A stretch of 20,000 nt of DNA from an uncultured virus (IMG/VR IMGVR_UViG_3300032323_003315) (taxonomy: Duplodnaviria; Heunggongvirae; Uroviricota; Caudoviricetes), in IMG/VR virus record IMGVR_UViG_3300032323_003315. One strand, given 5' to 3'. The notes beneath the pieces were generated by a model. It did no database searches, was not told the origin of the DNA, and was given only the letters and a program-made list of their open reading frames with translations. Positions 479 to 19,756 of this stretch are shown here, in pieces. Position numbers and translations under genes: made by a program. The stretch's first letter is position 1. Every line of letters begins with the position of its first letter.

Positions 479-2878
479 CTACAAAACAAAGAAGTCGTCG
501 TTGAATTTGTTGCTAACCTCTTTCAATATACCGCCCTTTGCAAAGCCCGCATTTTCTACTTGCGTATTGAAATGCTCCGCACTTGCCCATTTGATTTGCT
601 CTTGGCGCAATACCATATAGCTTCCTGTTACGTTTTTCTCCCCATTGATTATGTCCTGCGGGTTGTCTTCGTACATCAAAATACCATCGTAAAAGGTTTT
701 TTCGCGCATGTAGTTAAGCAGGGCTGTATTGAATTTACGAATATAAACCCAAAACTGCATTGGGGTATCAAGGAAAGCGTTTAGTTGGTCTATTCCCGCG
801 CTTGCATACCTATCGTAATTTGGTAAAGCTATTTCACGGGGTATGTTATATTCATTCATAAGAACATCGCCAATGTTGCGTAATGGAACGGCATCAATTC
901 CAAAAGCCATTACGTCTATTGGGTTTTTAATGTCCAAAAACACTTGGTACATGAAGCCATCGCCATAAAGATTGGCAAACCATTGAGAGTAAGAACGATT
1001 GTCTGCAAAATAAGCAGCAGGGAAATCGCTAAAACGCCATGCCATAAAATCCGCACGCGAACCATGATAACAAACCAAAGGCTCTTTTGTGCGGGGATTT
1101 ATTGCTTTGCTTACGCCGCCATAGTTTCCTGTTCTGTATGCCATTTGCCAATCTCCGAACCACGATATGAAATTGTCTGTGCGTACTTTGTGCCATTGCT
1201 TATTTGTAAGTTCAGTAGGCACGCCGTTAATGCTCATCAGCGAAGTATCGGGCGTTTCTGTTTCTAAACGCTCCTGTATAAATGTATTACCAAGTTTGTT
1301 AAGCAGTTCTAATCCTGTATCTGTTTCTAAAAGGTATTTATCCTTTGCTTCGCGCAGTTCGGCAAGTTTACGGTCAATCTGCACTTGTTTGTCGGCATTG
1401 GTTTTATCCACCAAGCCGCGCAAAATGCTGTATTTGCTAATCTCTGCTTCTGCCGCTTTGGAAAGCAATTCATATTTAACCTTATCGCGGGTGTCCTTTT
1501 TGCGTACTTTACGAATAGCCTTATCTAAATCGGTGATAGTTTCATTGACAAAACGATATTCGGGTTCGCCTTTGGTTATATGGCTGCGTAATATCAAAGT
1601 ATGACCATAAAATACACCTGTTTCATAATTTACATATACTTTACCATTATATTCAAAAATTATATTTTGATAATTATAATCGCCACCTATTTGTACTTTA
1701 ATACCTAATAATTTAATACGCAATGTGTTACCACCATCAATAGATATATTTTTTGGTTCTATAATTCTATTTTCGTTGGCAATATAATCGTAATATGTGT
1801 TTTCATTTCGCTCGTAAGATACAACTTCAAAAAAACGCTCTGACCCCTCAAATTCTATATCAGCACTATCGTTTACGCAAAAAGCATAAGGAACATTAAA
1901 AGACTTACCTGTATTTATTCGCCTTACCCTTTCGCCATCATTATTTGGATATAAATATTCACATAAGTGAGTATTAGAAGGTTCATTTTTTCCATCTTTG
2001 AACACTATACACATTTGCCCTATTTTATCCGCGTAGTTGATTACGTTAGGAATGTTTTGTGGATATACAATTTCTTGGCTTGTGCTAAAATCAGCAGGTA
2101 ATTCAACCAATGGATTAGGCATTACAATTATTCTATCTGACGCACCATATTTAGTTGCGTCAAAAACAAAACTATTATATTCGTCATTTATAATCCTTGA
2201 GAGTTTTATACCTATGACTGCTGTATTATTATTGTCATAAATAAAACCTTTTACTTGAAAGGGTATATAAAAATTGTAACCATATTTTGCTATAACTTCA
2301 TCGTAATAATTACCAACATCTGAAAACAAATCCCTATCAGAGTTTTCCTCGTAGTATGGTTTAACAAATACGAAGCTACCAATAAAAATACTTTCATCAA
2401 AAGCATAACTATCCGTAGTTGTAGTATTACGCGCCGTGCAATCTATGTATAACGTATTCTCCTTATTAGACGCGTTAATTGCTACATACACAGTAGTATC
2501 AACATCATCGCGAAAACTTGCAACAACTTGTTTACCTGCATAATAGGTTGCAAATGGCTTGTTGTCCTCTGTACCTCCCAAAAACCTGCCACCATCACCA
2601 AATTTATGCTTGGAGATTTCTCCGCCCTCTTTGAAGGCTACGCCTCCATGGTCGCTGTTTAGCTTGCTCAAAATTTCTTTTGGTGTCATTTGCTTGCCCT
2701 CAAAAGTGTATTTCTGATTGCTTTCCACCGCAGGCTTTGTAATTACTACCTCTCCGCCCTCTACTTCTATGGGTTCATTGGTGTCAACATTGATACCTTT
2801 TATACCACCCTCGCTATGGGGCTTTCCAACAAGATAACCGCCTTTTTTAGCGTCCTTGGTCTTTATTGCATTTTTCAT
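479..2878 (-). CDS. Polyvalent protein: N-terminal GxxHxxGG...EVEGGE domain, AT-rich variable middle, helical linker, C-terminal ART-PolyVal-like ADP-ribosyltransferase domain
   Basis: C-terminal motifs VRTDNFISWFGDW, EPLVCYHGS, AAYFA, VFLDIKNP, YDGI and EQIK match the ART of phage polyvalent proteins and align with the 19184-19756 ORF. Recognised by eye. Confidence 0.8.
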   Translation of the reverse strand: MKNAIKTKDAKKGGYLVGKPHSEGGIKGINVDTNEPIEVEGGEVVITKPAVESNQKYTFEGKQMTPKEILSKLNSDHGGVAFKEGGEISKHKFGDGGRFLGGTEDNKPFATYYAGKQVVASFRDDVDTTVYVAINASNKENTLYIDCTARNTTTTDSYAFDESIFIGSFVFVKPYYEENSDRDLFSDVGNYYDEVIAKYGYNFYIPFQVKGFIYDNNNTAVIGIKLSRIINDEYNSFVFDATKYGASDRIIVMPNPLVELPADFSTSQEIVYPQNIPNVINYADKIGQMCIVFKDGKNEPSNTHLCEYLYPNNDGERVRRINTGKSFNVPYAFCVNDSADIEFEGSERFFEVVSYERNENTYYDYIANENRIIEPKNISIDGGNTLRIKLLGIKVQIGGDYNYQNIIFEYNGKVYVNYETGVFYGHTLILRSHITKGEPEYRFVNETITDLDKAIRKVRKKDTRDKVKYELLSKAAEAEISKYSILRGLVDKTNADKQVQIDRKLAELREAKDKYLLETDTGLELLNKLGNTFIQERLETETPDTSLMSINGVPTELTNKQWHKVRTDNFISWFGDWQMAYRTGNYGGVSKAINPRTKEPLVCYHGSRADFMAWRFSDFPAAYFADNRSYSQWFANLYGDGFMYQVFLDIKNPIDVMAFGIDAVPLRNIGDVLMNEYNIPREIALPNYDRYASAGIDQLNAFLDTPMQFWVYIRKFNTALLNYMREKTFYDGILMYEDNPQDIINGEKNVTGSYMVLRQEQIKWASAEHFNTQVENAGFAKGGILKEVSNKFNDDFFVL

Positions 2879-2879
2879 T

Positions 2880-3743
2880 TTAAATATCGTCTAATGTTAA
2901 ATTGGAATAATCGGGTGGGAATATACCACCCTTTTCATACTTGGCATCAATGTAAAACAAATCTCCCTCATACTCGTATCCTATCGCTTCCTGCCCCCAT
3001 TCGTTTGCCCATGCAGCTATTTGCTTCATAAGTTTGGCTTTGTTTTCCTTGAAACTTTCGGGTGTGGCATACGAAACTACCCTTACTACTTTCTCGTTCA
3101 CCAATTTGCCATTACTTGCCATATACCCACCGATATAATTTGCTGATGTATAACCACCAAACATATTTGCAAGCGTTCTTTTTACAATATCCACCCTGCT
3201 ATCCATTTCTTTTTGGGAAACCATTTCGCTTACGTTGGATGTGCTTGGAACATAAACGGCCATTTCTACGGGCAAGTGGAACATTTTGTTTTGCTTTGGC
3301 AAGCGTGGTACTCTACCGCCCGCAGCCATAACTTCCGCCATGCCGCCTTTTGCAAGGTTCAGTTGTTTGAGCCTGCTGTAATAATCAAGCGTTTCGTAAA
3401 TATGGTCTTGTGCAATAGACATGGCGATAAGAATATCGTCCGTATGCTCAAGTTCGTGTTTCATGCCTTCTTCCAAAAAAGGTAATAGTTGTTCTTCGGT
3501 GATATTATGCTTATCCATAATCTCTCCGATAGTGTGTTTTCCTATCTTTCTTTTTGGTCTGATAAGGTCAGTATATGTGTTTTTATCATCCATTTGGGTG
3601 TCTGTATTTTCGGAGGTAAGTAATATTTTGTGTGGTGTAAAATGATGATTTACCGTTGCATTGTAAGCGTCCTGCAAATCCATGTTTTGCCCAATAGGAT
3701 AGGCTTTTTGGTTGTTTTTATCGTCTATAAATAACGCTATCAT
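2880..3743 (-). CDS. Modular protein: DUF5661-like (EHT...DH...DYY) domain plus DUF3574-like domain, with GG-motif linkers
   Basis: First domain: GMKHELEHTDD...IAQDHIYETLDYYSRL. Second domain: FGGYT...GGYMASNGKLVNEKV...WGQEAI. Linkers LAKGG, MAAGG and YEKGG. Confidence 0.6.
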   Translation of the reverse strand: MIALFIDDKNNQKAYPIGQNMDLQDAYNATVNHHFTPHKILLTSENTDTQMDDKNTYTDLIRPKRKIGKHTIGEIMDKHNITEEQLLPFLEEGMKHELEHTDDILIAMSIAQDHIYETLDYYSRLKQLNLAKGGMAEVMAAGGRVPRLPKQNKMFHLPVEMAVYVPSTSNVSEMVSQKEMDSRVDIVKRTLANMFGGYTSANYIGGYMASNGKLVNEKVVRVVSYATPESFKENKAKLMKQIAAWANEWGQEAIGYEYEGDLFYIDAKYEKGGIFPPDYSNLTLDDI

Positions 3744-3969: not shown

Positions 3970-4006
3970 TAAGGCGATTAGCGGAATGTTAGTCGCCTTA
4001 TTTTTT
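3970..4006 (+). terminator. Rho-independent terminator
   Basis: TAAGGCGATTAGC-GGAAT-GTTAGTCGCCTTA followed by T6. Two G.U pairs form only in the + strand RNA. Confidence 0.8.
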
Positions 4007-5261
4007 ATAGCAGTTCACTAAAAACAACTTTCCACGTTTCGGCTATCTTATCCCAATCGTATTCGCTCAATATCTGATTGTATAAGCCCTTATCCACGCC
4101 AATGCCATTGTGCGCGTCCATGTACGCTTGTATCATTTGGTTGGCCGTTTCCTCTACGCTTGGTATATGCCGTATGTTCTCATAATCGGCTATTTGGAAG
4201 TGGTTGTTTAATTCAGTTATTGGATAGCATGCTTTACCATCAAGGGTGATTTCTTTTAGACTTGTGTGCATAGGTGCAATAATTGGCAATCCTACTGCCA
4301 TAGCTTCTGTTACAGTTAATCCCCATCCTTCTGCGCCCGTTGTAGTAATGTAGCAATCCAAACAATTATATATCTCGTTCATTTCCTCAAGGGTATAAGC
4401 ACCACCTTTGATATATTCCTCTTTTGTTGGATAGTGAACGTATTGTGTTATTTCAAGGGCTTCGCATGCACGATAAAGATTTATGCCCGTGCTATCAGTA
4501 GGCGACATGTGCAGGTAAAGCGCAGGTGCTTTTATTTCGGGGTTGCTTCTTTTTTTGATGTGATACCATTCAACAAACATCCCAAACGCAAGCAAAGTGC
4601 CGCCAATGTTTTTACGGGAATTGTTTTTGTTTATGTTGCCAAATATGAATTTGTCTTTTGATAGTTTCCATTTGCTCCGTATTGCTTCCTTGTCAAAATT
4701 ATCAATCGCATAAAAATCATTTCTGTTTGCGCCATGGGGTATGACGGTAACATTTTTTCTGTATGGCTCTAATTGTTCAGCACCATAATTAGTGTAAGTA
4801 ACAAGAGTATGCCAAAAATCCAAATCATTCATAAATGTTGGATTTACAGGGCTGTCTATTGGAGCGTATAAAACCGCCTTAAATTTTTTCTGCTTGTTTT
4901 TTTCTTTATAGATATGCTTAATATCATGCAGTATATTCATGGTGGGAGAAAAAACAGGAATATCATTGATAGCCCAAAACAAATCCCAATTACCCTCATT
5001 CAGCATTTTAAGCATGCCGTCGCGATACCAAAGGTCGTTCAAGTTTTTTGCATGGTCTTTTGCGGAGCGCACATAAGCCTTTCCGCCATTTTTGCCATTG
5101 TACCAAAAAGGCTTGCCCGTAAAGTTGGTAGCGCAAATATGTACGTTTACATTTTTCTCGTTAAACCATATAAGTAACCTGTCAAGGAGATTATGGGCTA
5201 CACTTGCAAATCCCGTATGCACGGAAAAATCCATGTAGCACAACATGTTTTTTGTTTCCAT
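4005..5261 (-). CDS. GT-B glycosyltransferase (GT4-like)
   Basis: TGFASV at the N-terminus, NKNNSRKN, the EX7E signature EGWGLTVTEAMAVGLPII, and C-terminal YDWDKIAETW. Confidence 0.9.
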   Translation of the reverse strand: METKNMLCYMDFSVHTGFASVAHNLLDRLLIWFNEKNVNVHICATNFTGKPFWYNGKNGGKAYVRSAKDHAKNLNDLWYRDGMLKMLNEGNWDLFWAINDIPVFSPTMNILHDIKHIYKEKNKQKKFKAVLYAPIDSPVNPTFMNDLDFWHTLVTYTNYGAEQLEPYRKNVTVIPHGANRNDFYAIDNFDKEAIRSKWKLSKDKFIFGNINKNNSRKNIGGTLLAFGMFVEWYHIKKRSNPEIKAPALYLHMSPTDSTGINLYRACEALEITQYVHYPTKEEYIKGGAYTLEEMNEIYNCLDCYITTTGAEGWGLTVTEAMAVGLPIIAPMHTSLKEITLDGKACYPITELNNHFQIADYENIRHIPSVEETANQMIQAYMDAHNGIGVDKGLYNQILSEYDWDKIAETWKVVFSELL

Positions 5262-5265
5262 AAAA

Positions 5266-5604
5266 TTACTTCAATACCTCTAATTTGCTTTTTGGCTTTG
5301 CATCTACGTTGCTTATCGCAAGTTTATTTGGTATGGCTTCGCAGGTTTGAAAATAGAAAATATCATCGCCACTTTTTACAAGTTGCGCGCGCGTGCAATG
5401 CGTAGAGCATATTTCGTACTCTTTTGCATATTGCCCTTCTATTGTACCTTGCACTATGGCGTGCTGTACTTTATGGCATTTGCAGGGAAACCCGTCTTTC
5501 ACAAGGATTTTAACATTTTTCATTTCCCTTGCAGGATGTTCCATTAATTCGTACTGATGCAAATACTCAATGTTCTGTGCAGTTTTGTTTGCGTTGTCGT
5601 TCAT
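5266..5604 (-). CDS. Hypothetical Cys-containing protein (start revised from 5655 to ATG 5604)
   Basis: MNDNANKT... with CKCH, CSTHC and C. The revised start avoids overlap with the 5615-5857 gene. Confidence 0.7.
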   Translation of the reverse strand: MNDNANKTAQNIEYLHQYELMEHPAREMKNVKILVKDGFPCKCHKVQHAIVQGTIEGQYAKEYEICSTHCTRAQLVKSGDDIFYFQTCEAIPNKLAISNVDAKPKSKLEVLK

Positions 5605-5614
5605 GTTGGCAAAT

Positions 5615-5857
5615 TTAATTGTAATTGTCGTAACACCAAATAGGGGTTTTATCACCCATGTATGCTCCGCTTACATTATACTCAAAATACTCAAGAGCAT
5701 CTTCCTCGCTCATATCTCAGCAAAGAATTGTGAGGCATTTGGATACTGAATAAATCAGTCTTTCAGATTTTGTATCTACCCCTATAATAGCTTCGTCAAA
5801 ACCATCGGCGATTAAAAACTCCGTATCGGGGTGTGCTTCTATTATTGTTTCTAACAT
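5615..5857 (-). pseudogene. Conserved small phage protein (DGFDEAIIG...EYFEYNVSGAYMGDKTP) interrupted by an in-frame TGA at 5717-5719
   Basis: Hand translation: MLETIIEAHPDTEFLIADGFDEAIIGVDTKSERLIYSVSKCLTILC*DMSEEDALEYFEYNVSGAYMGDKTPIWCYDNYN*. It fills the 5605-5858 gap almost exactly, and both halves carry motifs of one family. Confidence 0.75.
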
Positions 5858-5858
5858 A

Positions 5859-6497
5859 TCAATCTATATCTGTTTCTCTTTTGGCAGGCGTACCCATGAC
5901 CTTGTAAGTCCATTCGTGGCTGCTTGCTTTTTTATGACTATGGCTATGCTCAATCATCCACTTTATCATTTCCCAATCATGTCCATAAAAATCACCTTGG
6001 TCGGGAACACCCCTATAAAACTCCATGCTTATACATAATTCGCTATGGCCAATCAGTCCTGCGGTTGCTTGTGTATCTCGTAATGTTCCAAGCGCATTAT
6101 TCCATGTATTGTAATAAACAAAGTCATGATTACTATTTTCTATTTCTGAAAGATAGTGTTCCAAATGGTTGATTTTTACAACGTCGTCATTGTCTATAAA
6201 GCAAATGTATGGTGCATCAGCAAGTTCTTTCATAAGGTTTCTTATGTAGTAACCATACCCACCATAATTTTTATCAAGGTTAAACGCTATCCATTCATTG
6301 CCCTTGTCTTCCTCCTCTTTTATTATTTCCTGCACCCAACCTCTGTCAAGGTCGGCTTGCCATACATGGCAACCATCACCAATCAGATAAACTTGAAAGT
6401 TGTTTATGGTCTGTTTGCGTAAGCAGTCAATTAGTCTTGCTGTTCTTTGAGGGCGACCAAATATCGGTACACATACTGTTATTCTCGGCGTATTCAT
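5859..6497 (-). CDS. GT-A glycosyltransferase (GT2-like)
   Basis: ITVCVPIFGRP, IGDG, RN, YICFIDNDD (DxD) and HDW motifs. Confidence 0.9.
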   Translation of the reverse strand: MNTPRITVCVPIFGRPQRTARLIDCLRKQTINNFQVYLIGDGCHVWQADLDRGWVQEIIKEEEDKGNEWIAFNLDKNYGGYGYYIRNLMKELADAPYICFIDNDDVVKINHLEHYLSEIENSNHDFVYYNTWNNALGTLRDTQATAGLIGHSELCISMEFYRGVPDQGDFYGHDWEMIKWMIEHSHSHKKASSHEWTYKVMGTPAKRETDID

Positions 6498-7108
6498 TTC
6501 TTTGGGTAAATGTATATGATGCCTCTCTTAACTTCTGTTGCTGTTTCGTCCGTATTATAATGATAGTAGTAACCATCTGCGCCATAAATGCTATCTAAAT
6601 AGGGTTGCATCGTAGCAAAAGATATATCCACCCCCTCATAGGCATCATACCCAAGTTCGGGTTCGTTTGGAACTAAACAGTCATGCACAACAATACATGG
6701 CTTCAAACCGCTTTCCTTTATGATTTCAAGTTCTTTGAGCAATGGTAAAGTTTGCCAATGGCTGTCTATGAAAATCAAAGTATCATCGCCGCAACCTGAC
6801 AACATAGTGTTCAATAGCGTTACGCTATCGCCTAAAAACGATACTATGTTTTTCAACCCCACGGCTCTCTGTAAGCCAATGTTGCGGAATTGTTCATTGA
6901 TTTCAACCGTGATTACCTGTTCAAAGTTTTCAGCAAACCACTTTGTTGAGCCAAAAACACAACTGCCCAACTCTACAAGGGTAGAAATGTTAAATTTGTC
7001 TTTCAGTTTTAAAAACTCTTTACAAGCAAACATGTCGCCGTTAAGGGGTAATGCTTGGTATGGCATTAAGATTGGTTCGTTTGGTAAAAGGCCGTCGTAT
7101 TTTCCCAT
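6494..7108 (-). CDS. Class I SAM-dependent methyltransferase (probable sugar O-methyltransferase)
   Basis: LVELGS (motif I), ITVEIN, LGDS, IFIDSH, PLLKEL and IVVHD. Confidence 0.8.
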   Translation of the reverse strand: MGKYDGLLPNEPILMPYQALPLNGDMFACKEFLKLKDKFNISTLVELGSCVFGSTKWFAENFEQVITVEINEQFRNIGLQRAVGLKNIVSFLGDSVTLLNTMLSGCGDDTLIFIDSHWQTLPLLKELEIIKESGLKPCIVVHDCLVPNEPELGYDAYEGVDISFATMQPYLDSIYGADGYYYHYNTDETATEVKRGIIYIYPKK

Positions 7109-7118
7109 AATTGATATT

Positions 7119-7784
7119 TTATACTTCTACCCATTGTCCATGGGGATTGTGCGGATGATATTGGCAATGCTGAAAATTTAAAGCAATTTTCATATTTGGT
7201 TCTGCAAGCAAATCTTTTCTAACCATGTACAGGTTCAAAGCGTCATTCTGAAAGACTATACGATAGCCCAACATTTCTGCAAGTTTTAAACCCGCGCTAA
7301 AAGAGAAGCCGTAATAATCGTTGCTATTCCAAGTATGGTTTGGATTGTATGCTATCTTTTTGCTTATGCCTTCGGGTATTGTTCCATTGACTTCGCATAC
7401 GATAAGCATAGGTTTGTAGTTTTGACAAATAGCATGAATAATATCAAAATCATTCCCATCTGTATCATAATTCAGCAACGTAAATTCCTTGGGGCAGCGA
7501 TATTTTTTCAATATGCTACACGCGTTCTCTGCTGTTACCCATTCCTCTTTAACCTCTTGGTTGCCATGGTTGTTGCCGTCTATCAGCAATTTTTTGAAAC
7601 CATGCTCCTCTATAAAGTAGCGGGTATTGCTTAAATGAAAACCATCCCAAGCACCTATATCCACAAGATACTTGTTTCCGTATCCTATGTTGTCCAAAAT
7701 AAATTTGATATAGCCCTCTTCTCCTGTTTGGCTATATTTCTGAAAGCGATGATTGCCTATTTCGGCTATCCAAGTGTCATTCAT
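7119..7784 (-). CDS. FkbM-like SAM-dependent methyltransferase
   Basis: YSQTGEEG, VDIGAWDG..SNT, DTDGND, IVCEVN, YYGFS and NLYMVR. Confidence 0.85.
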   Translation of the reverse strand: MNDTWIAEIGNHRFQKYSQTGEEGYIKFILDNIGYGNKYLVDIGAWDGFHLSNTRYFIEEHGFKKLLIDGNNHGNQEVKEEWVTAENACSILKKYRCPKEFTLLNYDTDGNDFDIIHAICQNYKPMLIVCEVNGTIPEGISKKIAYNPNHTWNSNDYYGFSFSAGLKLAEMLGYRIVFQNDALNLYMVRKDLLAEPNMKIALNFQHCQYHPHNPHGQWVEV

Positions 7785-8718
7785 ATTTGTGTATTAAGTC
7801 TTTTAGATTGTTGGCAAAGTTATGCCATGTGTATTTTGTTCTTACCAAACTACATCCGTTTCCTGCTATAAATGTTCTTTCGTCCTCATGCTCAAGATAG
7901 TATTTTATTTTCTCTAACAACTCGTCTAATGTTTTCCATGTTGCTATTTCATTTCCAATATTAAAATCTGCTTGTATGTTGGTATAATGATGCGTAAGGC
8001 AAAACGCCCCCGAACCCATAATTCTTAACATTCTATCGGAAGTATAACGGCTATAATCAAAATGGGAAAGGTTTATAGCTATTTTACATGTACGATATGC
8101 AACTGCTTCGTCCGCATATCTTGTCAAAATGCCATCTTTATTTGGCCAACCCGAACCATACAGACCAAAATCGCTATTAAACTCTTGTTTGAGAAGTTTT
8201 ACCATATCACATCTGAATTTGCTTAAAGGGAAGTTTATGGTATCAAAATAGTTTGAGCCTAAAAACAGAATGGGTTGAAAATATTTATTTGTACTGCCAA
8301 CGGGGGTAAAATCCACATCATCAAAACCAACTTGCAGATAATCTGACATAATGCCTTGCGCTCTAATTTCAAGCACATCATTCATGTTGGTAAAAAGTGT
8401 TAAGTGTATTTGCTTTCCTGTTTCTATGTAATGTTGTGGTAATGGGTATCTAACATCCCCTGTCCAATTTATAACTTTTGTTTTTGACGACAAAATCTTT
8501 AATGTTTTGTCAGTAACCACATTTCCGCTTTGAATGTGAAGTAAAACATAATTAGGGTTAAAATTATCTGTGGCTTGGATTATATCGTCTTGTAAAGCGT
8601 CTGAATTAAAACCATAATCTGTCCAATCTATGCTCTTGCAATCAAACACATCACTTAACGCTTCCGTAAGGCGTGGGTTATGATTACCCATGCGTAAGTA
8701 TAACAATCGTTTTTTCAT
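7777..8718 (-). CDS. GT-B glycosyltransferase, CgeB-like
   Basis: WTGD, FLGS, LYGSGW, KIAINLS, SDRMLRIMGSGAFCLT, KIKYYLEH..ER..IA and YTW. Confidence 0.85.
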   Translation of the reverse strand: MKKRLLYLRMGNHNPRLTEALSDVFDCKSIDWTDYGFNSDALQDDIIQATDNFNPNYVLLHIQSGNVVTDKTLKILSSKTKVINWTGDVRYPLPQHYIETGKQIHLTLFTNMNDVLEIRAQGIMSDYLQVGFDDVDFTPVGSTNKYFQPILFLGSNYFDTINFPLSKFRCDMVKLLKQEFNSDFGLYGSGWPNKDGILTRYADEAVAYRTCKIAINLSHFDYSRYTSDRMLRIMGSGAFCLTHHYTNIQADFNIGNEIATWKTLDELLEKIKYYLEHEDERTFIAGNGCSLVRTKYTWHNFANNLKDLIHKYE

Positions 8719-8719
8719 T

Positions 8720-9397
8720 TTATTGCGTTGGAGGTACTAACACATAAGGCGGTGGTACTCTCTGTATGTTTTCGCCGTTTATGTAATTGCGAATATTGCT
8801 CAAGTGGATATGATAGGTTTTTATAGACAGGGATGGATTAACAAGCGAGTATCCTGCGCTTTCAAGCAAGTATGCTATTGAATTATCGCACCCTGCTATA
8901 CCCATGGTGAAGTCTGCGCCCTCTACGTTTGGAACACCACCCTTGAAAATCCATGTATCTTGGCTGTCTGCTCTGTTAAATAACACGGCATTGCTTTGGT
9001 AGTTGGACATATCCGAAACATCCCACCTTGACAAAGCCAATGCTTTATTGCTTGTGGTAACGTATTGCTCTATAACTTCCATGGTGTCCTTGCAAATAAC
9101 AATATCCGAATTGCAGATGATATTGATATTGTCGGGTTGATTAAAGTATCTTTCGGTAATGTCAAAATAGTCATTATAGGTCGGTCTTTCCTGCATCACT
9201 CTCCTGTGCAATATTTTATCCCTTTGAATGGTGCGAGAAATAATACCATCATATTTTTTGCTGTCTTCGCCGTTAATGATTACATAGCAACAGTTGAATT
9301 TCTCGTTGTTGAGATTTTGCTCAAAACAGAAATCTATCTCTTTTTGCCTTTCGGGGTTTTTGTCTGTATAGTAGTTTACAAACAGGTTGTATTTCAT
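8720..9397 (-). CDS. Putative GT-A fold glycosyltransferase (start revised from 9454 to ATG 9397)
   Basis: IICNSDI (NxD variant of DxD), ALSRWD, SQDTWIF, GCDN, NPS and HIH. The revised start removes the overlap with the upstream gene. Confidence 0.65.
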   Translation of the reverse strand: MKYNLFVNYYTDKNPERQKEIDFCFEQNLNNEKFNCCYVIINGEDSKKYDGIISRTIQRDKILHRRVMQERPTYNDYFDITERYFNQPDNINIICNSDIVICKDTMEVIEQYVTTSNKALALSRWDVSDMSNYQSNAVLFNRADSQDTWIFKGGVPNVEGADFTMGIAGCDNSIAYLLESAGYSLVNPSLSIKTYHIHLSNIRNYINGENIQRVPPPYVLVPPTQ

Positions 9398-9402
9398 TGT
9401 GC

Positions 9403-10116
9403 TTATAAAAGTATTAAGGATATAATACCGCCCAACCCAAAACCAAACCACCACTTTTTATATATGGGCGTTTTGGGCTTAAACTGCGTGTTGTTCAATT
9501 TTGATATGTCCACGTTGGGGTTGTCGCTTACCACTTCAATTTTGTATTGGTCTGCTTTAAATATCCCTCCGCTTACTTTACCCGTAGTAATGGTTAATTC
9601 GTTTGGTATGCTCAAACTATCTATAACCACTCCGTCGGATTTTACTGTTCCTGCAATCTGAAAATATTTGTCGTTTTTTTCAAAAGGTAGCGGTGTCTTT
9701 ACAAAAGTTTGTGGATTGTTAGGATTTGAACTATCAACATATTTTATTACTTCCACCTTGTAAGGCACTTGCACTTCTTTGATTTGCGTTATGGTCTGTA
9801 CTTGCACCTGCCCCTGTATGCTCTTGAATTTGTTTATCGTTTTTACAAGGCGCATATTCTCTTTGGTTGCTTCCATAATTCTCTGCTCTTGCAGGGCTAC
9901 TATTTTTCCATTATCGGTTCTGTATTTTTTAAACTCCTGTTCTTTGTCAGAAAGTTGTTTTACCAATTCCCGTGCTTGCCTGCGATTGTTTAGCACCCAC
10001 GAAAAAAACAACAGCGCAAAAATTATGACGATTGCCCCATATAGGTACATTCTATATTTGGTTTTTTTATCGTTGCGCTCGTTTGCAACAAAGGGAATAT
10101 TCTCAAAATCGCTCAT
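9403..10116 (-). CDS. Membrane-anchored coiled-coil protein with hydrophobic N- and C-termini (possible lysis accessory or spanin-like protein)
   Basis: TM segment LYGAIVIIFALLFFSWVL, coiled coil, beta-rich part (SIPNELTIT, VVSDNPNV), C-terminal WWFGFGLGGIISLILL. Function is inferred. Confidence 0.55.
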   Translation of the reverse strand: MSDFENIPFVANERNDKKTKYRMYLYGAIVIIFALLFFSWVLNNRRQARELVKQLSDKEQEFKKYRTDNGKIVALQEQRIMEATKENMRLVKTINKFKSIQGQVQVQTITQIKEVQVPYKVEVIKYVDSSNPNNPQTFVKTPLPFEKNDKYFQIAGTVKSDGVVIDSLSIPNELTITTGKVSGGIFKADQYKIEVVSDNPNVDISKLNNTQFKPKTPIYKKWWFGFGLGGIISLILL

Positions 10117-10373
10117 GGTATGTTTTGTATTTGGTCAATTTCGTAAAAGCGCATGTTTAACTTGTTCAGTTTTGCAACAAGCAATGAAGCATCGGCAATA
10201 TTATAGCGAGAGGCTAATATGGGGCTTTTGACTACTGTGTATTGACATGTGTAAATATCCACGTCGCAAAGATAGCCCTCAAGGTTTACGTTCCTTTCAA
10301 GCATATCAGCATGCACCGCAATATCAAAGGGATTTGATTGATGCTTTTTGATTACATAATTTTTATTGCTCAT
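10113..10373 (-). CDS. Hypothetical protein
   Basis: ATGA overlaps with both neighbours. Confidence 0.7.
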   Translation of the reverse strand: MSNKNYVIKKHQSNPFDIAVHADMLERNVNLEGYLCDVDIYTCQYTVVKSPILASRYNIADASLLVAKLNKLNMRFYEIDQIQNIP

Positions 10374-10588
10374 TGTTGTATGTATTTAAGATAGACGAAC
10401 AGAATGACATAAAACGCGGTGGAAATCTTTATGTTTATTGGGGCTATTCTTTCCGTAAACACTTGCATTTCAGCCGTAGTCATAAACCTGCCTTCACGAA
10501 CATAGGTTATTACATCCATGATAGTCAATGCTACATAATAAAAAGGCAGAGATGTGAAAAATAGGATTATTGCTAAAAGTCGCTGCAT
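10370..10588 (-). CDS. Small membrane protein (2 hydrophobic segments)
   Basis: LLAIILFFTSLPFYYVALTIM and ISTAFYVILFVYL; tightly packed in the operon. Confidence 0.7.
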   Translation of the reverse strand: MQRLLAIILFFTSLPFYYVALTIMDVITYVREGRFMTTAEMQVFTERIAPINIKISTAFYVILFVYLKYIQQ

Positions 10589-10590
10589 GA

Positions 10591-11226
10591 TTATTGGTTA
10601 AAAGGTGTTGTATATGTTTCGTGTGTTGGTGCGCCACCCCATTTTTGCTCATAGTGTTTACGGCACTCAAAAACTTTGTCATAAAGAGATTTGTCTTTTT
10701 CTCCCGATTTGCTTGTCCTCAAAACTTCGGGCAAAATTATTTCGGTAGTAACAACATTGGCCTCTGCTAATTTCAAGCGATAGTTATAATCGGTATCCTC
10801 GTAATAAGCGGGATAATAGTTTTCGTCAAACTTGCCCATGGTCTGATAGGTTTTGAATGGTATGATAAAAGAACAATAAGAGCCGCAATGATAAAAGTCT
10901 GCGGGATTATGTTCAAGCCATGCTTCTATCTCTTGCGCCTTCCTGTGCAATACAACATCATCATTAAGAATAAGTATGTGGGTATATCCCAATCCTGCCT
11001 GTCTTTCTATGATTGCGTTCCATGATGCCGCAACGCCCAAGTTAGTTCCTGCATTAAACACCTTTATCTGCGGAGGGTTTTCGGAAATTTCTTGATTTCC
11101 ATTGTCTATAATGTAAATATGGCGATGCTTAAAGGTTTCTGCATATACCGCCAAGGCTTCCTCAAGTAAATCCTTGCGATTGATAGTGGGAATACCAAGG
11201 GCAAGTGTAGGTCGTATGTTGCTCAT
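10591..11226 (-). CDS. GT-A glycosyltransferase (GT2-like)
   Basis: GIPTINR, IIDNG, NLGVAASWN, LILNDD and FDENYYPAYYEDTDYNYR. Confidence 0.9.
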   Translation of the reverse strand: MSNIRPTLALGIPTINRKDLLEEALAVYAETFKHRHIYIIDNGNQEISENPPQIKVFNAGTNLGVAASWNAIIERQAGLGYTHILILNDDVVLHRKAQEIEAWLEHNPADFYHCGSYCSFIIPFKTYQTMGKFDENYYPAYYEDTDYNYRLKLAEANVVTTEIILPEVLRTSKSGEKDKSLYDKVFECRKHYEQKWGGAPTHETYTTPFNQ

Positions 11227-12083: not shown

Positions 12084-12431
12084 TTAACCTCCCAACCTTT
12101 CGTTAAAGTAATTTTCAAAGTTCAGTTTGTTTTCGGAAATCTTATGAAATTCCACGCCCATCAGTTCTGATATATCTTGATAAGCAGCAATGGCAAAATC
12201 AATCATATTTTGCTTCTGTATTGCTTTGGCCTTTTTGTATATATCCGCCCATTCAGCAGGTGTGTTTGCTCTTTTGTATTGGTCGTCCTTCACTTGCTCT
12301 ATAAGCCATTCTACCCCGCCTATTTCGCGATAGTTGTTATCGGGGCAACATGCCAAATATCTTTCTCCGTTTTTATTTAGGCCAAGCGGTTCGTCATTCA
12401 GCCGCCCACAGCCCGTACACATTTTTATCAT
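12084..12431 (-). CDS. Cys-motif (CTGC...CC) domain fused to a 'VEWL...AK' family domain
   Basis: GVEWLIEQV...KKAKAIQKQNMIDF...ENYFNE; SD GGAGGT 5 nt upstream. Confidence 0.8.
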   Translation of the reverse strand: MIKMCTGCGRLNDEPLGLNKNGERYLACCPDNNYREIGGVEWLIEQVKDDQYKRANTPAEWADIYKKAKAIQKQNMIDFAIAAYQDISELMGVEFHKISENKLNFENYFNERLGG

Positions 12432-12673
12432 TTGTTACCTCCGTATTTGTCGTTGTAGTATTGTTCTGCCCAAGTTTTAGTTTCTTCTAAATTATAGGCA
12501 TCGCCATCACCTGCTTGATAAGCAGTTTCAATCTGTTGCTTTTCCATTTCTTTGGCTTGTTCTTTAATCTTATTCAGACGTTCACATTCTGACCAAGAAA
12601 GGTTACTACTAAAACAAGCCCATACTTCATCATATAAAAAATCTACTGCTGTTTGCCGTTTCTCTTTGCTCAT
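12428..12673 (-). CDS. 'TAVEWL/AKEMEKEQI' family small phage protein
   Basis: QTAVDFL...EQAKEMEKQQIETAY..G...AEQYYNDKYGGNK. Confidence 0.85.
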   Translation of the reverse strand: MSKEKRQTAVDFLYDEVWACFSSNLSWSECERLNKIKEQAKEMEKQQIETAYQAGDGDAYNLEETKTWAEQYYNDKYGGNK

Positions 12674-12698
12674 TTGTTACCTCCGTATGTTTCGTTGT
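12428..12698. repeat. 29-bp direct repeat (27/29 identical) at two consecutive gene junctions
   Basis: 12428-12456 and 12670-12698 share the exact 19-mer tcatttgttacctccgtat, which contains the SD, stop and next start on the minus strand. Confidence 0.85.
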
Positions 12699-12852
12699 CC
12701 ATAAGCCATGTTAATAGTGGTGTATGTTTTTTGTGGTTTGCCCCTGTTAAAATCCAAATAGGGTTTAAGATAAGTAGAATAAAAAACCCATCCAACATGC
12801 TGCATGGTAAAAAAAACAGCACTTGGCAAAAGCGTATCAAAATGTTTCTCAT
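12670..12852 (-). CDS. Small hydrophobic protein
   Basis: Long hydrophobic stretch; ends NETYGGNK. Confidence 0.7.
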   Translation of the reverse strand: MRNILIRFCQVLFFLPCSMLDGFFILLILNPIWILTGANHKKHTPLLTWLMDNETYGGNK

Positions 12853-13056: not shown

Positions 13057-13509
13057 CTATGGCAAATAATCAAATATAGACATTTGCCCCGTCATGTGGC
13101 TTTCTCCCCCCTCAATCAAAACTTTCTTTTGCCGTTCCATTTGCCTCTGTATCGCCGCCAAACTTTCGTGCATCGCCGCAATTTTGCCTCTCTGCATATC
13201 AATCCATCTTTCAATATCCTGTATGTTGGTCGCTACATAATAGCCATCATTGTTTGCAATCAGCAAGTCAAGCAAGTCATTGTTACGGATATGGAAGATG
13301 ATTTTACGAATTTGGCTATCGGCTATATCCTGCCCAAACTCTTTTAGCACCTTTCTAATCTTGGTGTTTGAAAATACCTTTTCCTTGTCCTTGCGGTGCT
13401 GCATCATATTCAGCACCAAAGGTAGCAATACGTTTTTCTCATGGTTTGATAGGGCGGCAAACGCGCTGCGGCTATCTACCTTTTCAATTACGTTCTCGTT
13501 GTCGTTCAT
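13057..13509 (-). CDS. Winged-HTH protein with C-terminal beta-clamp-binding-like motif
   Basis: IRKIIFHIR...IANNDGYY wHTH pattern, coiled tail, and GQMSIFDYLP end. Confidence 0.65.
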   Translation of the reverse strand: MNDNENVIEKVDSRSAFAALSNHEKNVLLPLVLNMMQHRKDKEKVFSNTKIRKVLKEFGQDIADSQIRKIIFHIRNNDLLDLLIANNDGYYVATNIQDIERWIDMQRGKIAAMHESLAAIQRQMERQKKVLIEGGESHMTGQMSIFDYLP

Positions 13510-16367: not shown

Positions 16368-17021
16368 ATGTTAAACATCGCCCCTGCGTTATATGGTCAA
16401 TCTAATAAGTATATCCAAGTATGGTTATACATATTTACATGTATTGCAAAAGGCGAACCCGTATCCGTTGCTAACATCATTACTGAATGTTCTGTAACGC
16501 GACAATCTTTGTATGACATTCTTAATCGTGGTGTGCATGTTTTTAACCAACACAACATACCACTTTCAATTAATCGTTCACATGCAAAAGATAGGTTTTT
16601 AATCATTGATTGTAATGTTGCTGAAACACCGCAAAAACAAAGTGTTTCATTAATGGTGCAGGAAGCACCAAAAGAGAAACCAATCAATACTAAAAACGAA
16701 GTTGCAATGAATGTTATTGTTACTTATCTGAATGAAGTAACAAACAAATCATACAGAACAAACAATGCTTCCACGATACGTTTAATCAATGCACGTTTGA
16801 ATAATGGTTTTACCGTTGAACAGTTCAAATATGTTATTGATATAAAAGCATCACAATGGATGAATACGGAACATGAAAAGTACCTGCGCCCCGAAACATT
16901 ATTTGGAAACAAATTTGAAGGATACCTCAATGAAACATTTACAACAAACAAACCAAACGACAGCCTTACAGCAAAGTTTAGAAACGCGGAAGAAAGTATT
17001 AACCGAGATTGGGGCGTTTAG
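16368..17021 (+). CDS. Phage replication initiator-like protein (N-terminal HTH plus Phg_2220_C-like C-terminus)
   Basis: YLNEVTNKSYR...INARLNNGFTVEQFKYVID...QW...YLRPETLFGNKFEGYLNE. Confidence 0.85.
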   Translation: MLNIAPALYGQSNKYIQVWLYIFTCIAKGEPVSVANIITECSVTRQSLYDILNRGVHVFNQHNIPLSINRSHAKDRFLIIDCNVAETPQKQSVSLMVQEAPKEKPINTKNEVAMNVIVTYLNEVTNKSYRTNNASTIRLINARLNNGFTVEQFKYVIDIKASQWMNTEHEKYLRPETLFGNKFEGYLNETFTTNKPNDSLTAKFRNAEESINRDWGV

Positions 17022-17820
17022 TCAGAACAAAGAAGAGGAAGGAATTATTCGCGCTCAATTAGCGGATAGCCAAATTAAGTTCTATGACTTTAACAAACCC
17101 GAACACAAAAAGGTTATTGTATCCATGCTTTTAGAGTGGTCAATTATGTTGGGTATAAAAGAACCCATGACACCCGAACTGAATATCGTGAACGCAAAAT
17201 TTCTGATAGAGAACTTTGATTACTTAACCATATCCGAAATTCGCCAAGCGATACAATGGAGCATAACGGGTAAATTGGATATTGACCCTACCCCATACGG
17301 TATATTAGCACCTATCTACATAGCCAAGATTTTAAACAAGTACATGGACAAGCGGGATGCTGTTATGCAGATGCTTCATTTTCGCAGGAACGAACAACAT
17401 GGCAAAAAGCAACTTGAGATAAAAAACCACATACCATACGAGAAGGCTGTAAAAGACCATAGGAAGTTTTTAACCGAACACATGCAAGCCATGAAAGATA
17501 AAAATGCTTCTGATGTGGCAGGAAACCTTGTATGGCGTTTTTTGCTTCGCACAAAGGCCGTAAACCCAAAGATGCTTGATGCTGAAAGTGAGGAGCATGC
17601 CAAAGAGCGAATGGCCAACTTAAAGATTACCCGTGATTACAGGGATGAAATAATGAAGCTATCCAAAACGCAAATTGAGTTAAAGGCTGAAGCTACCATA
17701 GAGCGTTTTATGCAGGATTACGTTATCCATAAAATTTTAAAAAATTTGCCACACATTTCCGAATATATTGCGAGCCAACCCGACGACATCATATTACCAA
17801 AAGTAAAAACTAAAAAATAA
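16930..17820 (+). CDS. Hypothetical helical protein, possible helicase loader (start at 16930 or 16873)
   Basis: Overlaps the 3' end of the initiator gene, in the position a loader occupies in lambda O/P-like pairs. Function inferred from position only. Confidence 0.55.
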   Translation: MKHLQQTNQTTALQQSLETRKKVLTEIGAFSQNKEEEGIIRAQLADSQIKFYDFNKPEHKKVIVSMLLEWSIMLGIKEPMTPELNIVNAKFLIENFDYLTISEIRQAIQWSITGKLDIDPTPYGILAPIYIAKILNKYMDKRDAVMQMLHFRRNEQHGKKQLEIKNHIPYEKAVKDHRKFLTEHMQAMKDKNASDVAGNLVWRFLLRTKAVNPKMLDAESEEHAKERMANLKITRDYRDEIMKLSKTQIELKAEATIERFMQDYVIHKILKNLPHISEYIASQPDDIILPKVKTKK

Positions 17821-19183: not shown

Positions 19184-19756
19184 ATGAATAAGCTACTTGC
19201 CCCCAATGGTAAACCGAGCAACCTCACGCCCAAGCAGTACAAACTCGTAAGAACCAAGGCGTTTAAAAATTGGTTTGGCGATTGGGAAAAATACCCTGCC
19301 AATGCTTCAAAGGTTGTGGACGAGAACGGCGAGCCTTTGGTGGTGTATCATACAACGAATAATGAGTTTTATATTTTTAGCAAAAAGAAATCAAGGGATG
19401 GGTTTTTCTTTTCACCTCAAAAGCAACGATTATATGTTTACGGAAAGTCAAAGGTCAATTCATATTTTTTGAATTTAAGAAACCCATCACACGAAATATT
19501 CCAAACAGATTTGAAATCTCTTATTTCAAAAGGTTACGATGGTATAATGGATTATGGATATGCAAAACATTTAGGAAATAAATCCTTATATGAAATCATA
19601 GCGTTTGAACCCACGCAAATCAAACTTGCCGACGGCACTAACACGGCATTTGACGGGAGCAACCCCGATATTAGGTTCTCCGCAGGCGGCCTAATCCATA
19701 GCCTCAAGCGAATTTTGCCGAAGAGAATACTAAAACTCTCGGACTTGCCCTTTTAA
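19184..19756 (+). CDS. Stand-alone ART-PolyVal-like ADP-ribosyltransferase
   Basis: LAPNGKPSNL, VRTKAFKNWFGDW, SKVVDENGEPLVVYHTT, GFFFS, FLNLRNP, GYDGI, YEIIAFEPTQIKLA, NPDIRFSAGG. Confidence 0.85.
   Translation: MNKLLAPNGKPSNLTPKQYKLVRTKAFKNWFGDWEKYPANASKVVDENGEPLVVYHTTNNEFYIFSKKKSRDGFFFSPQKQRLYVYGKSKVNSYFLNLRNPSHEIFQTDLKSLISKGYDGIMDYGYAKHLGNKSLYEIIAFEPTQIKLADGTNTAFDGSNPDIRFSAGGLIHSLKRILPKRILKLSDLPF

Follow-up and report, generated by a model that had tools for sequence, protein, structure and literature searches.

A conserved [YFM]xxGG junction element in modular effector proteins of a group of uncultured viruses

Introduction

The stretch under study, 20,000 nucleotides of an uncultured Caudoviricetes virus (IMG/VR record IMGVR_UViG_3300032323_003315; hereafter, the window), encodes three modular effector-like proteins in which a short motif, hydrophobic-x-x-Gly-Gly, recurs between or just after recognizable domains. 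This raises the question of whether the motif is a genuine element and, if so, what it does. A first-pass annotation proposed that it is a cleavage site freeing individual effectors or a capsid-loading tag shared by unrelated cargo. The analysis presented here bears out a real, non-random and conserved motif that stands at module boundaries and before C-terminal tails; the roles proposed for it, as a cleavage site or a capsid-loading tag, are putative. The motif is a sequence-specific junction element in the modular effectors of a large group of uncultured viruses, and it is probably a place where these effectors are cut or held.

Motif copies in the window

The three proteins and their seven motif copies are as follows.

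479..2878, minus strand: P0001, modular (polyvalent) protein of 799 aa; N-terminal module, variable beta-rich middle, helical linker, ART-PolyVal (ADP-ribosyltransferase, ART) domain, junction motif, tail
2621..2635, minus strand: FKEGG, P0001 residues 82-86; F82, G85 and G86 invariant in 37 homologs
2588..2602, minus strand: FGDGG, P0001 residues 93-97; G96 and G97 at least 90% conserved; tandem doublet with FKEGG, 11 aa apart
530..544, minus strand: FAKGG, P0001 residues 779-783; 9 residues past the Pfam ART span; G782 and G783 invariant
2880..3743, minus strand: P0002, protein of 287 aa; small N-terminal module, DUF5661, double junction motif, SAM-lyase-like (S-adenosylmethionine lyase-like) module, junction motif, tail
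3342..3356, minus strand: LAKGG, P0002 residues 130-134; L130 and G133 at least 90% conserved in 14 orthologs
3315..3329, minus strand: MAAGG, P0002 residues 139-143; M139, G142 and G143 invariant; homology with the protein of locus L019 ends just past it
2925..2939, minus strand: YEKGG, P0002 residues 269-273; Y269, G272 and G273 invariant
19184..19756, plus strand: P0003, stand-alone ART-PolyVal protein of 190 aa (Pfam)
19676..19690, plus strand: FSAGG, P0003 residues 165-169; within the family-wide ending NPDIR[FY]xxGG

All seven copies were found exactly where the first-pass annotation had placed them. The last copy indeed lies near the C-terminus, ending 16, 14 and 21 residues before it in the 799-, 287- and 190-aa proteins, respectively, and the residue two positions past Gly-Gly is I, L, V or F in six of the seven copies, the exception being LAKGG-MA.

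In the three proteins (1276 aa), [FYML]xxGG occurs seven times against 1.26 expected, a count reached in 0.04% of 5000 residue shuffles, and [FYML]xxGGx[ILVF] occurs six times against 0.32 expected (0 of 5000 shuffles), an approximately 6- to 19-fold excess. The other 22 open reading frames (ORFs) of the window (4295 aa) contain four copies against 2.3 expected and one strict copy against 0.6, which is not significant. This test is post hoc, the motif having been defined on the same three proteins, and reliance was therefore placed on independent data, namely ortholog conservation and recurrence in other proteins and contigs. The Gly codons vary among the copies (GGC GGT, GGC GGA, GGT GGC, GGC GGC, GGT GGT), as do the flanking codons, so the signal lies at the protein level and a DNA-level signal was rejected.

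A 150-aa ORF at 13057-13509 (minus strand; PHROG 2113, function unassigned) ends in KKVLIEGGESHMTGQMSIFDYLP, a looser hydrophobic-x-x-GG followed by a short hydrophobic-acidic tail; it is possibly a fourth bearer of the motif system in the window.

Conservation and recurrence of the motif

In 14 orthologs of P0002 (53-97% identical), M139, G142, G143, Y269, G272 and G273 are invariant. The same is true of F82, G85, G86, G782 and G783 in 37 homologs of P0001, where the mean column identity is 21%; F779, like G96 and G97, is at least 90% conserved in these homologs, and the residues between vary. The Gly-Gly pair is invariant in orthologs down to 35-55% identity. These alignments show the motif staying invariant while the neighbouring residues drift. 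For P0003, 1017 protein matches were obtained at E <= 1e-3, and [FYMLIVW]xxGG is present in 117 of 121 stand-alone ART proteins (the query and 120 listed matches), nearly always as NPDIR[FY]xxGG, with which the ART module ends.

An alignment-based scan detected 37 related viral loci; P0001 alone as a query gave none. The scan of related viruses for which the first-pass annotation had called confirmed the enrichment: the 628 ORFs of the 37 loci contain 183 copies of the strict form [FYM]xxGGx[ILV], where 17.9 would be expected. The copies are concentrated in 70 of these ORFs (558 contain none, 44 contain at least two). In G004, a complete relative of 84.4 kb with terminal inverted repeats, 13 strict copies are found in six of 109 ORFs. 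Multi-domain relatives can carry many copies, 15 against 1.5 expected in P0115, eight against 1.4 in P0109 and six against 1.2 in P0021, whereas P0116, a polyvalent protein of another lineage, contains one against 1.1 expected.

According to the sequence logo built from 259 de-duplicated GG contexts, K is favoured at position -4, Y, F or M at -3 (3.4- to 4.3-fold), A (4.5-fold) and also E at -2, K, D or E at -1, and I, V or T two residues after GG (2.6- to 2.9-fold). The consensus is K-[YFM]-A-[KDE]-G-G-x-[IVT].

As for the viruses that use the motif, the collection of cultured phages gave no DNA match, and its protein matches were only short ART-domain ones in seven records. Matches toward the host were to contigs of metagenome-assembled genomes (MAGs) only, one of them from Saprospiraceae. 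The hosts probably belong to Bacteroidota.

The first-pass annotation had named a background-level frequency and missing conservation in orthologs as grounds against its proposal; the frequency is above background, and the orthologs conserve the motif. A chance or compositional origin, through Gly-rich linkers or through GG codons that encode the ribosome-binding site of the next gene, could draw on the post hoc nature of the window test, on the YIKGGAY of a glycosyltransferase, which is present as the annotation reported and resembles a random match, and on two small ORFs ending in YGGNK that do encode GGAGG just before the next start codon. However, at least 42 nt separate the stop codon from every motif copy in the three proteins, and Shine-Dalgarno sequences are missing from most of the genes, so a ribosome-binding-site artefact was rejected as holding only for the two YGGNK ORFs. 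Together with the ortholog invariance and the counts in 628 independent ORFs and in the ART proteins, this leaves such an origin a negligible probability overall and excludes it for the three proteins.

The two YGGNK ORFs are adjacent (12428-12673 and 12670-12852, minus strand). Their DNA reads ACGGAGGTAACAA and then ATG, where GGAGG forms a Shine-Dalgarno-like sequence for the overlapping gene that follows. A-rich leaders without such a sequence precede nearly all remaining genes of the window, as is usual in Bacteroidota.

Position of the motif relative to folded domains

The remaining parts of the three proteins are listed below.

2579..2878, minus strand: P0001 N-terminal module, approximately residues 1-100; best-conserved part, with two junction copies at its end; low AlphaFold confidence
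569..1084, minus strand: P0001 ART-PolyVal ADP-ribosyltransferase domain, residues 599-770 (Pfam)
482..529, minus strand: P0001 C-terminal tail ILKEVSNKFNDDFFVL, residues 784-799; a related tail in most homologs, consensus LNx[LIM]DF[VAG][FLI]
3360..3524, minus strand: P0002 DUF5661 helical domain, residues 74-128 (Pfam)
2940..3272, minus strand: P0002 C-terminal module, residues 158-268 (FHLPVEMAVYVPST...GDLFYI; PHROG 3543); phage SAM-lyase-like fold
2883..2924, minus strand: P0002 C-terminal tail IFPPDYSNLTLDDI, residues 274-287; the same tail on the P0001 homologs P0042 and P0044
19691..19753, plus strand: P0003 C-terminal tail LIHSLKRILPKRILKLSDLPF, residues 170-190; an identical tail behind a different module in P0140

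The expected enrichment outside domains, in the stretches between them, was borne out: in 16 proteins only one of 81 copies falls within a Pfam span, these spans covering 20.4% of the residues (binomial p = 2e-7). In all three proteins with both a full-length ART match and a downstream copy, the motif follows 9 residues after the end of the ART span. In the AlphaFold models, segments whose predicted local distance difference test (pLDDT) value is below 50 (P0001 1-52, 73-102 and 780-799; P0002 135-157 and 272-287) contain or border on all six copies of P0001 and P0002, and Gly-Gly pairs outside the motif lie mostly inside confidently folded domains. The low confidence in the first 100 residues of P0001 need not mean disorder, since the high conservation of this part leaves little covariation.

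The spacing between successive copies peaks at 61-100 aa, the size of a domain (155 of 596), and at 8-13 aa, the latter corresponding to tandem doublets (69 of 596). In P0035, the order is motif-A-motif-B-motif-C-motif-D. Some copies stand a few residues from the N-terminus. In 236 proteins, the distance from the last copy to the C-terminus is at most 3 residues in 50, 4-30 residues in 142 and larger in 35, and nine proteins have no copy. The motif is thus shown to stand in a short non-globular stretch that ends each module and to be excluded from folded domains.

The modules themselves are diverse. Several unrelated effector domains share one chain, as in polyvalent proteins, with ART-PolyVal present in P0001 and P0003 and Zeta_toxin, GNAT, RelA_SpoT and DUF5824 among the polyvalent domains of relatives. 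According to the Foldseek analysis of its model (mean pLDDT 63.5), the C-terminal module of P0002 is similar to the structures 6zm9 (E = 8.9e-5) and 6znb (6.9e-4); it also matches the T3 SAM lyase 8bb1_E at E = 1.1e-2, the similarity being one of fold only. Judging from this model, the module is probably an anti-restriction enzyme fused to DUF5661. SAM-lyase-like modules are found in many architectures with the motif bracketing them on both sides, and stand-alone versions of 159-185 aa (P0027-P0030, P0032) are without it.

The N-terminal module of P0001 (GGYLVGKPHSEGGIKG...PIEVEGGEVVITKPAV...) stands at one end, either the N- or the C-terminal one, of large polyvalent proteins encoded in the 37 viral loci. 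One of these loci belongs to a contig of 354 kb. The module may be a constant handle of such proteins. A Pfam search at E <= 10 with this module and with the linker and tail pieces of P0001 gave nothing useful, and when the P0002 profile and the P0001 N-terminal module were compared with the sequences of solved structures, only chance-level rows resulted (E >= 0.11). In the ESM Atlas, the module matched unnamed viral clusters (0.93) and gave a weak crAss_CARG1 lead (0.87) below the mark of the tool; a crAss_CARG1 match, also sub-threshold, was found for the relative P0250. The middle 350 residues of P0001 are hardly alignable across homologs, and Foldseek with the P0001 model returned for the middle domain weak Tudor- or clamp-like rows with a large root-mean-square deviation and no assignment.

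Module exchange at the motif and C-terminal tails

P0002 and the syntenic protein of locus L019 share 42% identity in a stretch (residues 1-145) that reaches to the MAxGG copy. Beyond it they carry unrelated modules, and both end in KYEKGG; the synteny of the window with L019 continues downstream of the P0001 homolog. Across the relatives, 11% of 2931 homology breakpoints fall within 5 aa of a copy when all high-scoring segment pairs (HSPs) of at least 50 aa are taken. The share rises to 20% (of 1485) at >=45% identity and to 38% (of 539) for the sharp breakpoints at >=60% identity, whereas random positions give 6%; the stricter identity cuts were chosen after the first, modest figure was known. 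As far as these comparisons go, the motif is shown to be a point at which modules and C-terminal tails are swapped between proteins.

The tails that follow the last copy in the 236 proteins fall into the following classes.

xDFxF: 54 proteins
TPDYLKxFLG: 33 proteins
[YF]x[IV]GGL: 33 proteins
L[TN][LF][DE][DE][IFL]: 15 proteins
WxWFGIKF: 10 proteins
LSDLPF: 3 proteins
YWYKGLF: 3 proteins

The LSDLPF, TPDYLK, WEWFGIKF, YWYKGLF and xIGGL tails stand behind ART and non-ART modules alike, and the tail PPDYxNLTLDDI is common to the SAM-lyase-like P0002 and the ART proteins P0042 and P0044. The earlier suggestion of a shared cargo tag thus holds in so far as the same short C-terminal peptides are carried by unrelated proteins; since the tails of the three window proteins differ from each other, a single tag common to them was not found, and neither was a pattern of one tag per genome with a known receptor.

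Taken together, such findings could describe an uncleaved hinge or joint for module exchange, in which a flexible Gly-Gly with hydrophobic anchors lets the modules fold independently and only recombinants joined there are viable. The breakpoints at the motif, the abrupt change of P0002 and its L019 counterpart after MAxGG, the occurrence of the same tails behind different modules, the placement of the motif in low-pLDDT linkers and a negative search for a protease (see below) all agree with it. It leaves unexplained, however, the invariant aromatic residue at -3 and the beta-branched residue after GG beside unrelated folds, as well as the near-absence of the motif from the other-lineage protein P0116. 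Copies at the extreme N- or C-terminus have nothing to join, the breakpoint enrichment is modest when all HSPs are counted, and the varying Gly codons make for weak DNA micro-homology. On balance, we consider a hinge rather unlikely, though only slightly less likely than processing (see below).

Several tails resemble other peptides. The tail of P0003 ends in LSDLPF, and the single-stranded DNA-binding protein (SSB) of a Saprospiraceae MAG (L057) ends in DDDLPF; only the last four residues match, those preceding them in P0003 being basic, not acidic. The LSDLPF tail may, by this resemblance, be a mimic of the SSB tip. Co-folding of P0003 residues 150-190 with E. coli exonuclease I yielded no answer (score 0.00, without controls) and counts neither way. 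The commonest tail of stand-alone ART proteins (P0118-P0235), [ST]x[TV]PDYLK[MF][FL], shares P-x-Y-L-[KR] with a peptide near the C-terminus of Saprospiraceae FtsZ (...EPAYLRR..., loci L061-L065), a resemblance only, and the P0002 tail (PPDYSNLTLDDI) shares PDY with the TPDYLK-type ART tails. In L019, a 333-aa ORF without the GG motif (16597-17598) ends in ...LASKYEELDLDF, which is near the tail ...LKAKYNDLDFVF of the P0001 homolog on the same contig; an acidic-aromatic tail may, on this comparison, be shared within the L019 genome independently of the GG motif.

Search for a protease or another reader

The motif is sequence-specific, restricted to a clade and located beside unrelated folds, and a common reader, i.e., a protease or a binding partner, is the simplest explanation of this combination. 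The clade-specificity, seen in the background-level count of P0116 and in the many ORFs of the related loci without the motif, speaks for a reader that co-evolves with the motif and against a generic hinge.

We tentatively favour, at less than even odds, a processing site that releases the modules. A protease of the virus or of its host would make an endoproteolytic cut behind the Gly-Gly pair and turn a multi-effector precursor into individual enzymes (ADP-ribosyltransferase, SAM-lyase-like, zeta-kinase, RelA/SpoT and others); handle and tails, at the N- and the C-terminus respectively, would be removed after serving, as in MARTX toxins or T4 internal proteins. Cleavage is preferred to the other readings because a copy stands at nearly every boundary, because GG would occupy P2-P1, and because processing of such proteins is the expectation published in PMC5512222.

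The viral Gly-Gly proteases cited by the first-pass annotation are a precedent in part. Sites of adenain (the adenovirus protease) and the coronavirus protease PLpro have the form h-x-G-G, with a hydrophobic residue (M/I/L) at P4. As in these sites and those of the African swine fever virus protease pS273R, a Gly-Gly preceded by a hydrophobic residue stands here between the units of a viral multi-unit protein, and, as a feature of the sequence, the invariant GG at would-be P2-P1 agrees with the precedent; the hydrophobic P4 does not, P4 being A (22%), E (15%) or K (12%) in the 259 contexts and Y, F or M standing at P5. Moreover, the virus infects bacteria, and a search of five related viral records yielded neither a clan CE peptidase family nor another one specific for GG.

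Besides this difference of register, several results weigh against processing. Copies 1-3 residues from the C-terminus (50 of 236) or near the N-terminus would gain little from cutting, and the tails behind the last copy, being conserved and portable, must act while attached at least part of the time. The window scans revealed no protease family, in agreement with the first-pass annotation, and its suggestion to look for a co-occurring C48/C5-like, JAB or prohead protease had a negative outcome: Peptidase_S78, C48, C39, Prok-JAB and C5 were each detected in none of the five related records, one of which is complete. No protease family was found in G004 among the 75 of 109 ORFs scanned with Pfam and the 48 of 109 scanned with PHROGs; these scans left out ORFs shorter than 90 aa and three ORFs spanning locus borders, only the first 2679 residues of a 5338-aa ORF were scanned (PHROGs), and most scanned ORFs match no family. 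A divergent protease or one of the host may have escaped these searches. Because no protease was found, the register differs and the tails are conserved, both the hinge and an uncleaved docking motif continue to be weighed here.

DUF5661 was considered as the missing protease and rejected. It (1106 family matches) has HELEH in close orthologs, but the first His of the HExxH pattern is not conserved, many members having VEMEHT or VELEHT (34 of the 150 listed were read), and no zincin was found for the DUF5661 protein among the 50 best Foldseek rows. The domain is also not an obligate partner, since it is present in one of five motif-using viral records. A double-glycine leader of the kind recognized by C39 peptidases does not fit copies that are internal or C-terminal, and Peptidase_C39 is found in 0 of 5 records.

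In four of four loci (L019, L012, L015 and G004), the gene of the P0001 homolog is followed downstream, at a distance of one or two genes, by that of an AAA_5/MoxR-like ATPase, which makes the ATPase a candidate reader. The motif could accordingly be a docking element bound uncleaved by one shared partner, either a capsid or portal receptor or this adjoining AAA+ ATPase, with the tails adding targeting. A sequence-specific, disordered and clade-restricted motif with terminal copies is compatible with such a tag, and the portable tails are formally like cargo-loading peptides. Nevertheless, one copy would suffice for a tag, whereas copies flank nearly every module, up to 15 per protein and often as doublets; the partner is a candidate only, the three window tails differ, and no recognized virion gene lies nearby. 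Docking without cleavage is thus judged unlikely. The neighbours of the motif genes are glycosyltransferases, the AAA_5 ATPase, proteins of unknown function and replication genes, with no recognized virion genes among them, so packaging of the motif proteins remains an assumption.

A broader form of the processing hypothesis, which we regard as distinctly improbable, is a clade-wide scheme of tagging, delivery and cutting. Module ends with [YFM]xxGG would be cut, and the swappable tails would be address peptides, some of them mimicking docking peptides of host hubs: the DLPF of P0003 would correspond to the SSB tip DDDLPF, and TPDYLK to the PAYLRR of Bacteroidota FtsZ. Prior to their release, the effectors would be directed to the machinery of the host or into the virion.

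Relation to known systems

Effectors of MARTX toxins are freed by their own cysteine protease domain, and the T4 capsid-targeting sequence is removed by the prohead protease; the sites are Leu-X or (L/I)xE, respectively, and in both cases a known protease, encoded together with the cargo, does the cutting. Modular cargo with short conserved sites between the units, at which units or targeting peptides are separated once delivery or packaging has taken place, is the model that these systems offer for the proteins studied here, where [YFM]xxGG would be the site and the searches above gave no protease. Among C-terminal signals, encapsulin cargo-loading peptides and the capsid-targeting signal of the HK97 protease are short conserved peptides carried by unrelated cargo enzymes behind a flexible Gly-containing linker. 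In contrast, at least seven tail classes exist here, the three in the window differing, and the GG motif is also internal, with many copies per protein.

The closest relatives in concept are the polyvalent proteins of phages and conjugative elements, for which Iyer et al. 2017 (PMC5512222) proposed processing by peptidases embedded in them. The passages found in that paper name zincin-like, assemblin-like and Lon-type peptidases and mention no junction motif; in its main text, the words "glycine" and "linker" occur 0 times. As described there, polyvalent proteins are multi-effector chains with ART-PolyVal, zeta toxin, RelA/SpoT and GNAT domains, like those studied here; unlike them, the present proteins contain no embedded peptidase domain of the three named types. 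No published description of the motif was found in full-text literature searches; the supplementary alignments of PMC5512222, outside their scope, might show the ART ending.

Polyvalent proteins are regarded as mixed sets of anti-defence and takeover enzymes that are delivered when infection takes place, and the motif bears on their possible dismantling. A motif carried by ART-family relatives and dozens of unrelated modules provides a concrete site that can be mutated, sought by terminomics and used as bait for a reader. It also offers a practical rule for splitting uncharacterized giant phage proteins into functional modules and draws attention to a group of address peptides at the C-terminus that are portable between proteins. 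Even if it is merely a hinge, it documents how these viruses shuffle effector modules.

Gene neighbourhood and contents of the complete relative

Directly upstream of the DUF5661 gene, at 4005-11226 (minus strand), the window contains at least five glycosyltransferase genes (GT4/GT1 and GT2 types, Glyco_trans_1_2). The order glycosyltransferases, DUF5661 protein, P0001 homolog and AAA_5 ATPase recurs in L019.

In G004 (loci L045-L049), the Pfam and PHROGs analyses revealed no capsid, portal, clear terminase, protease or DNA polymerase family. The genome encodes the 5338-aa ORF mentioned above, which is collagen-like, many glycosyl- and FkbM methyltransferases, an SLT domain, a PAP2 domain and a DUF2958-RelA/SpoT protein. 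In addition, it contains a run of small proteins that end in a hydrophobic helix followed by basic residues.

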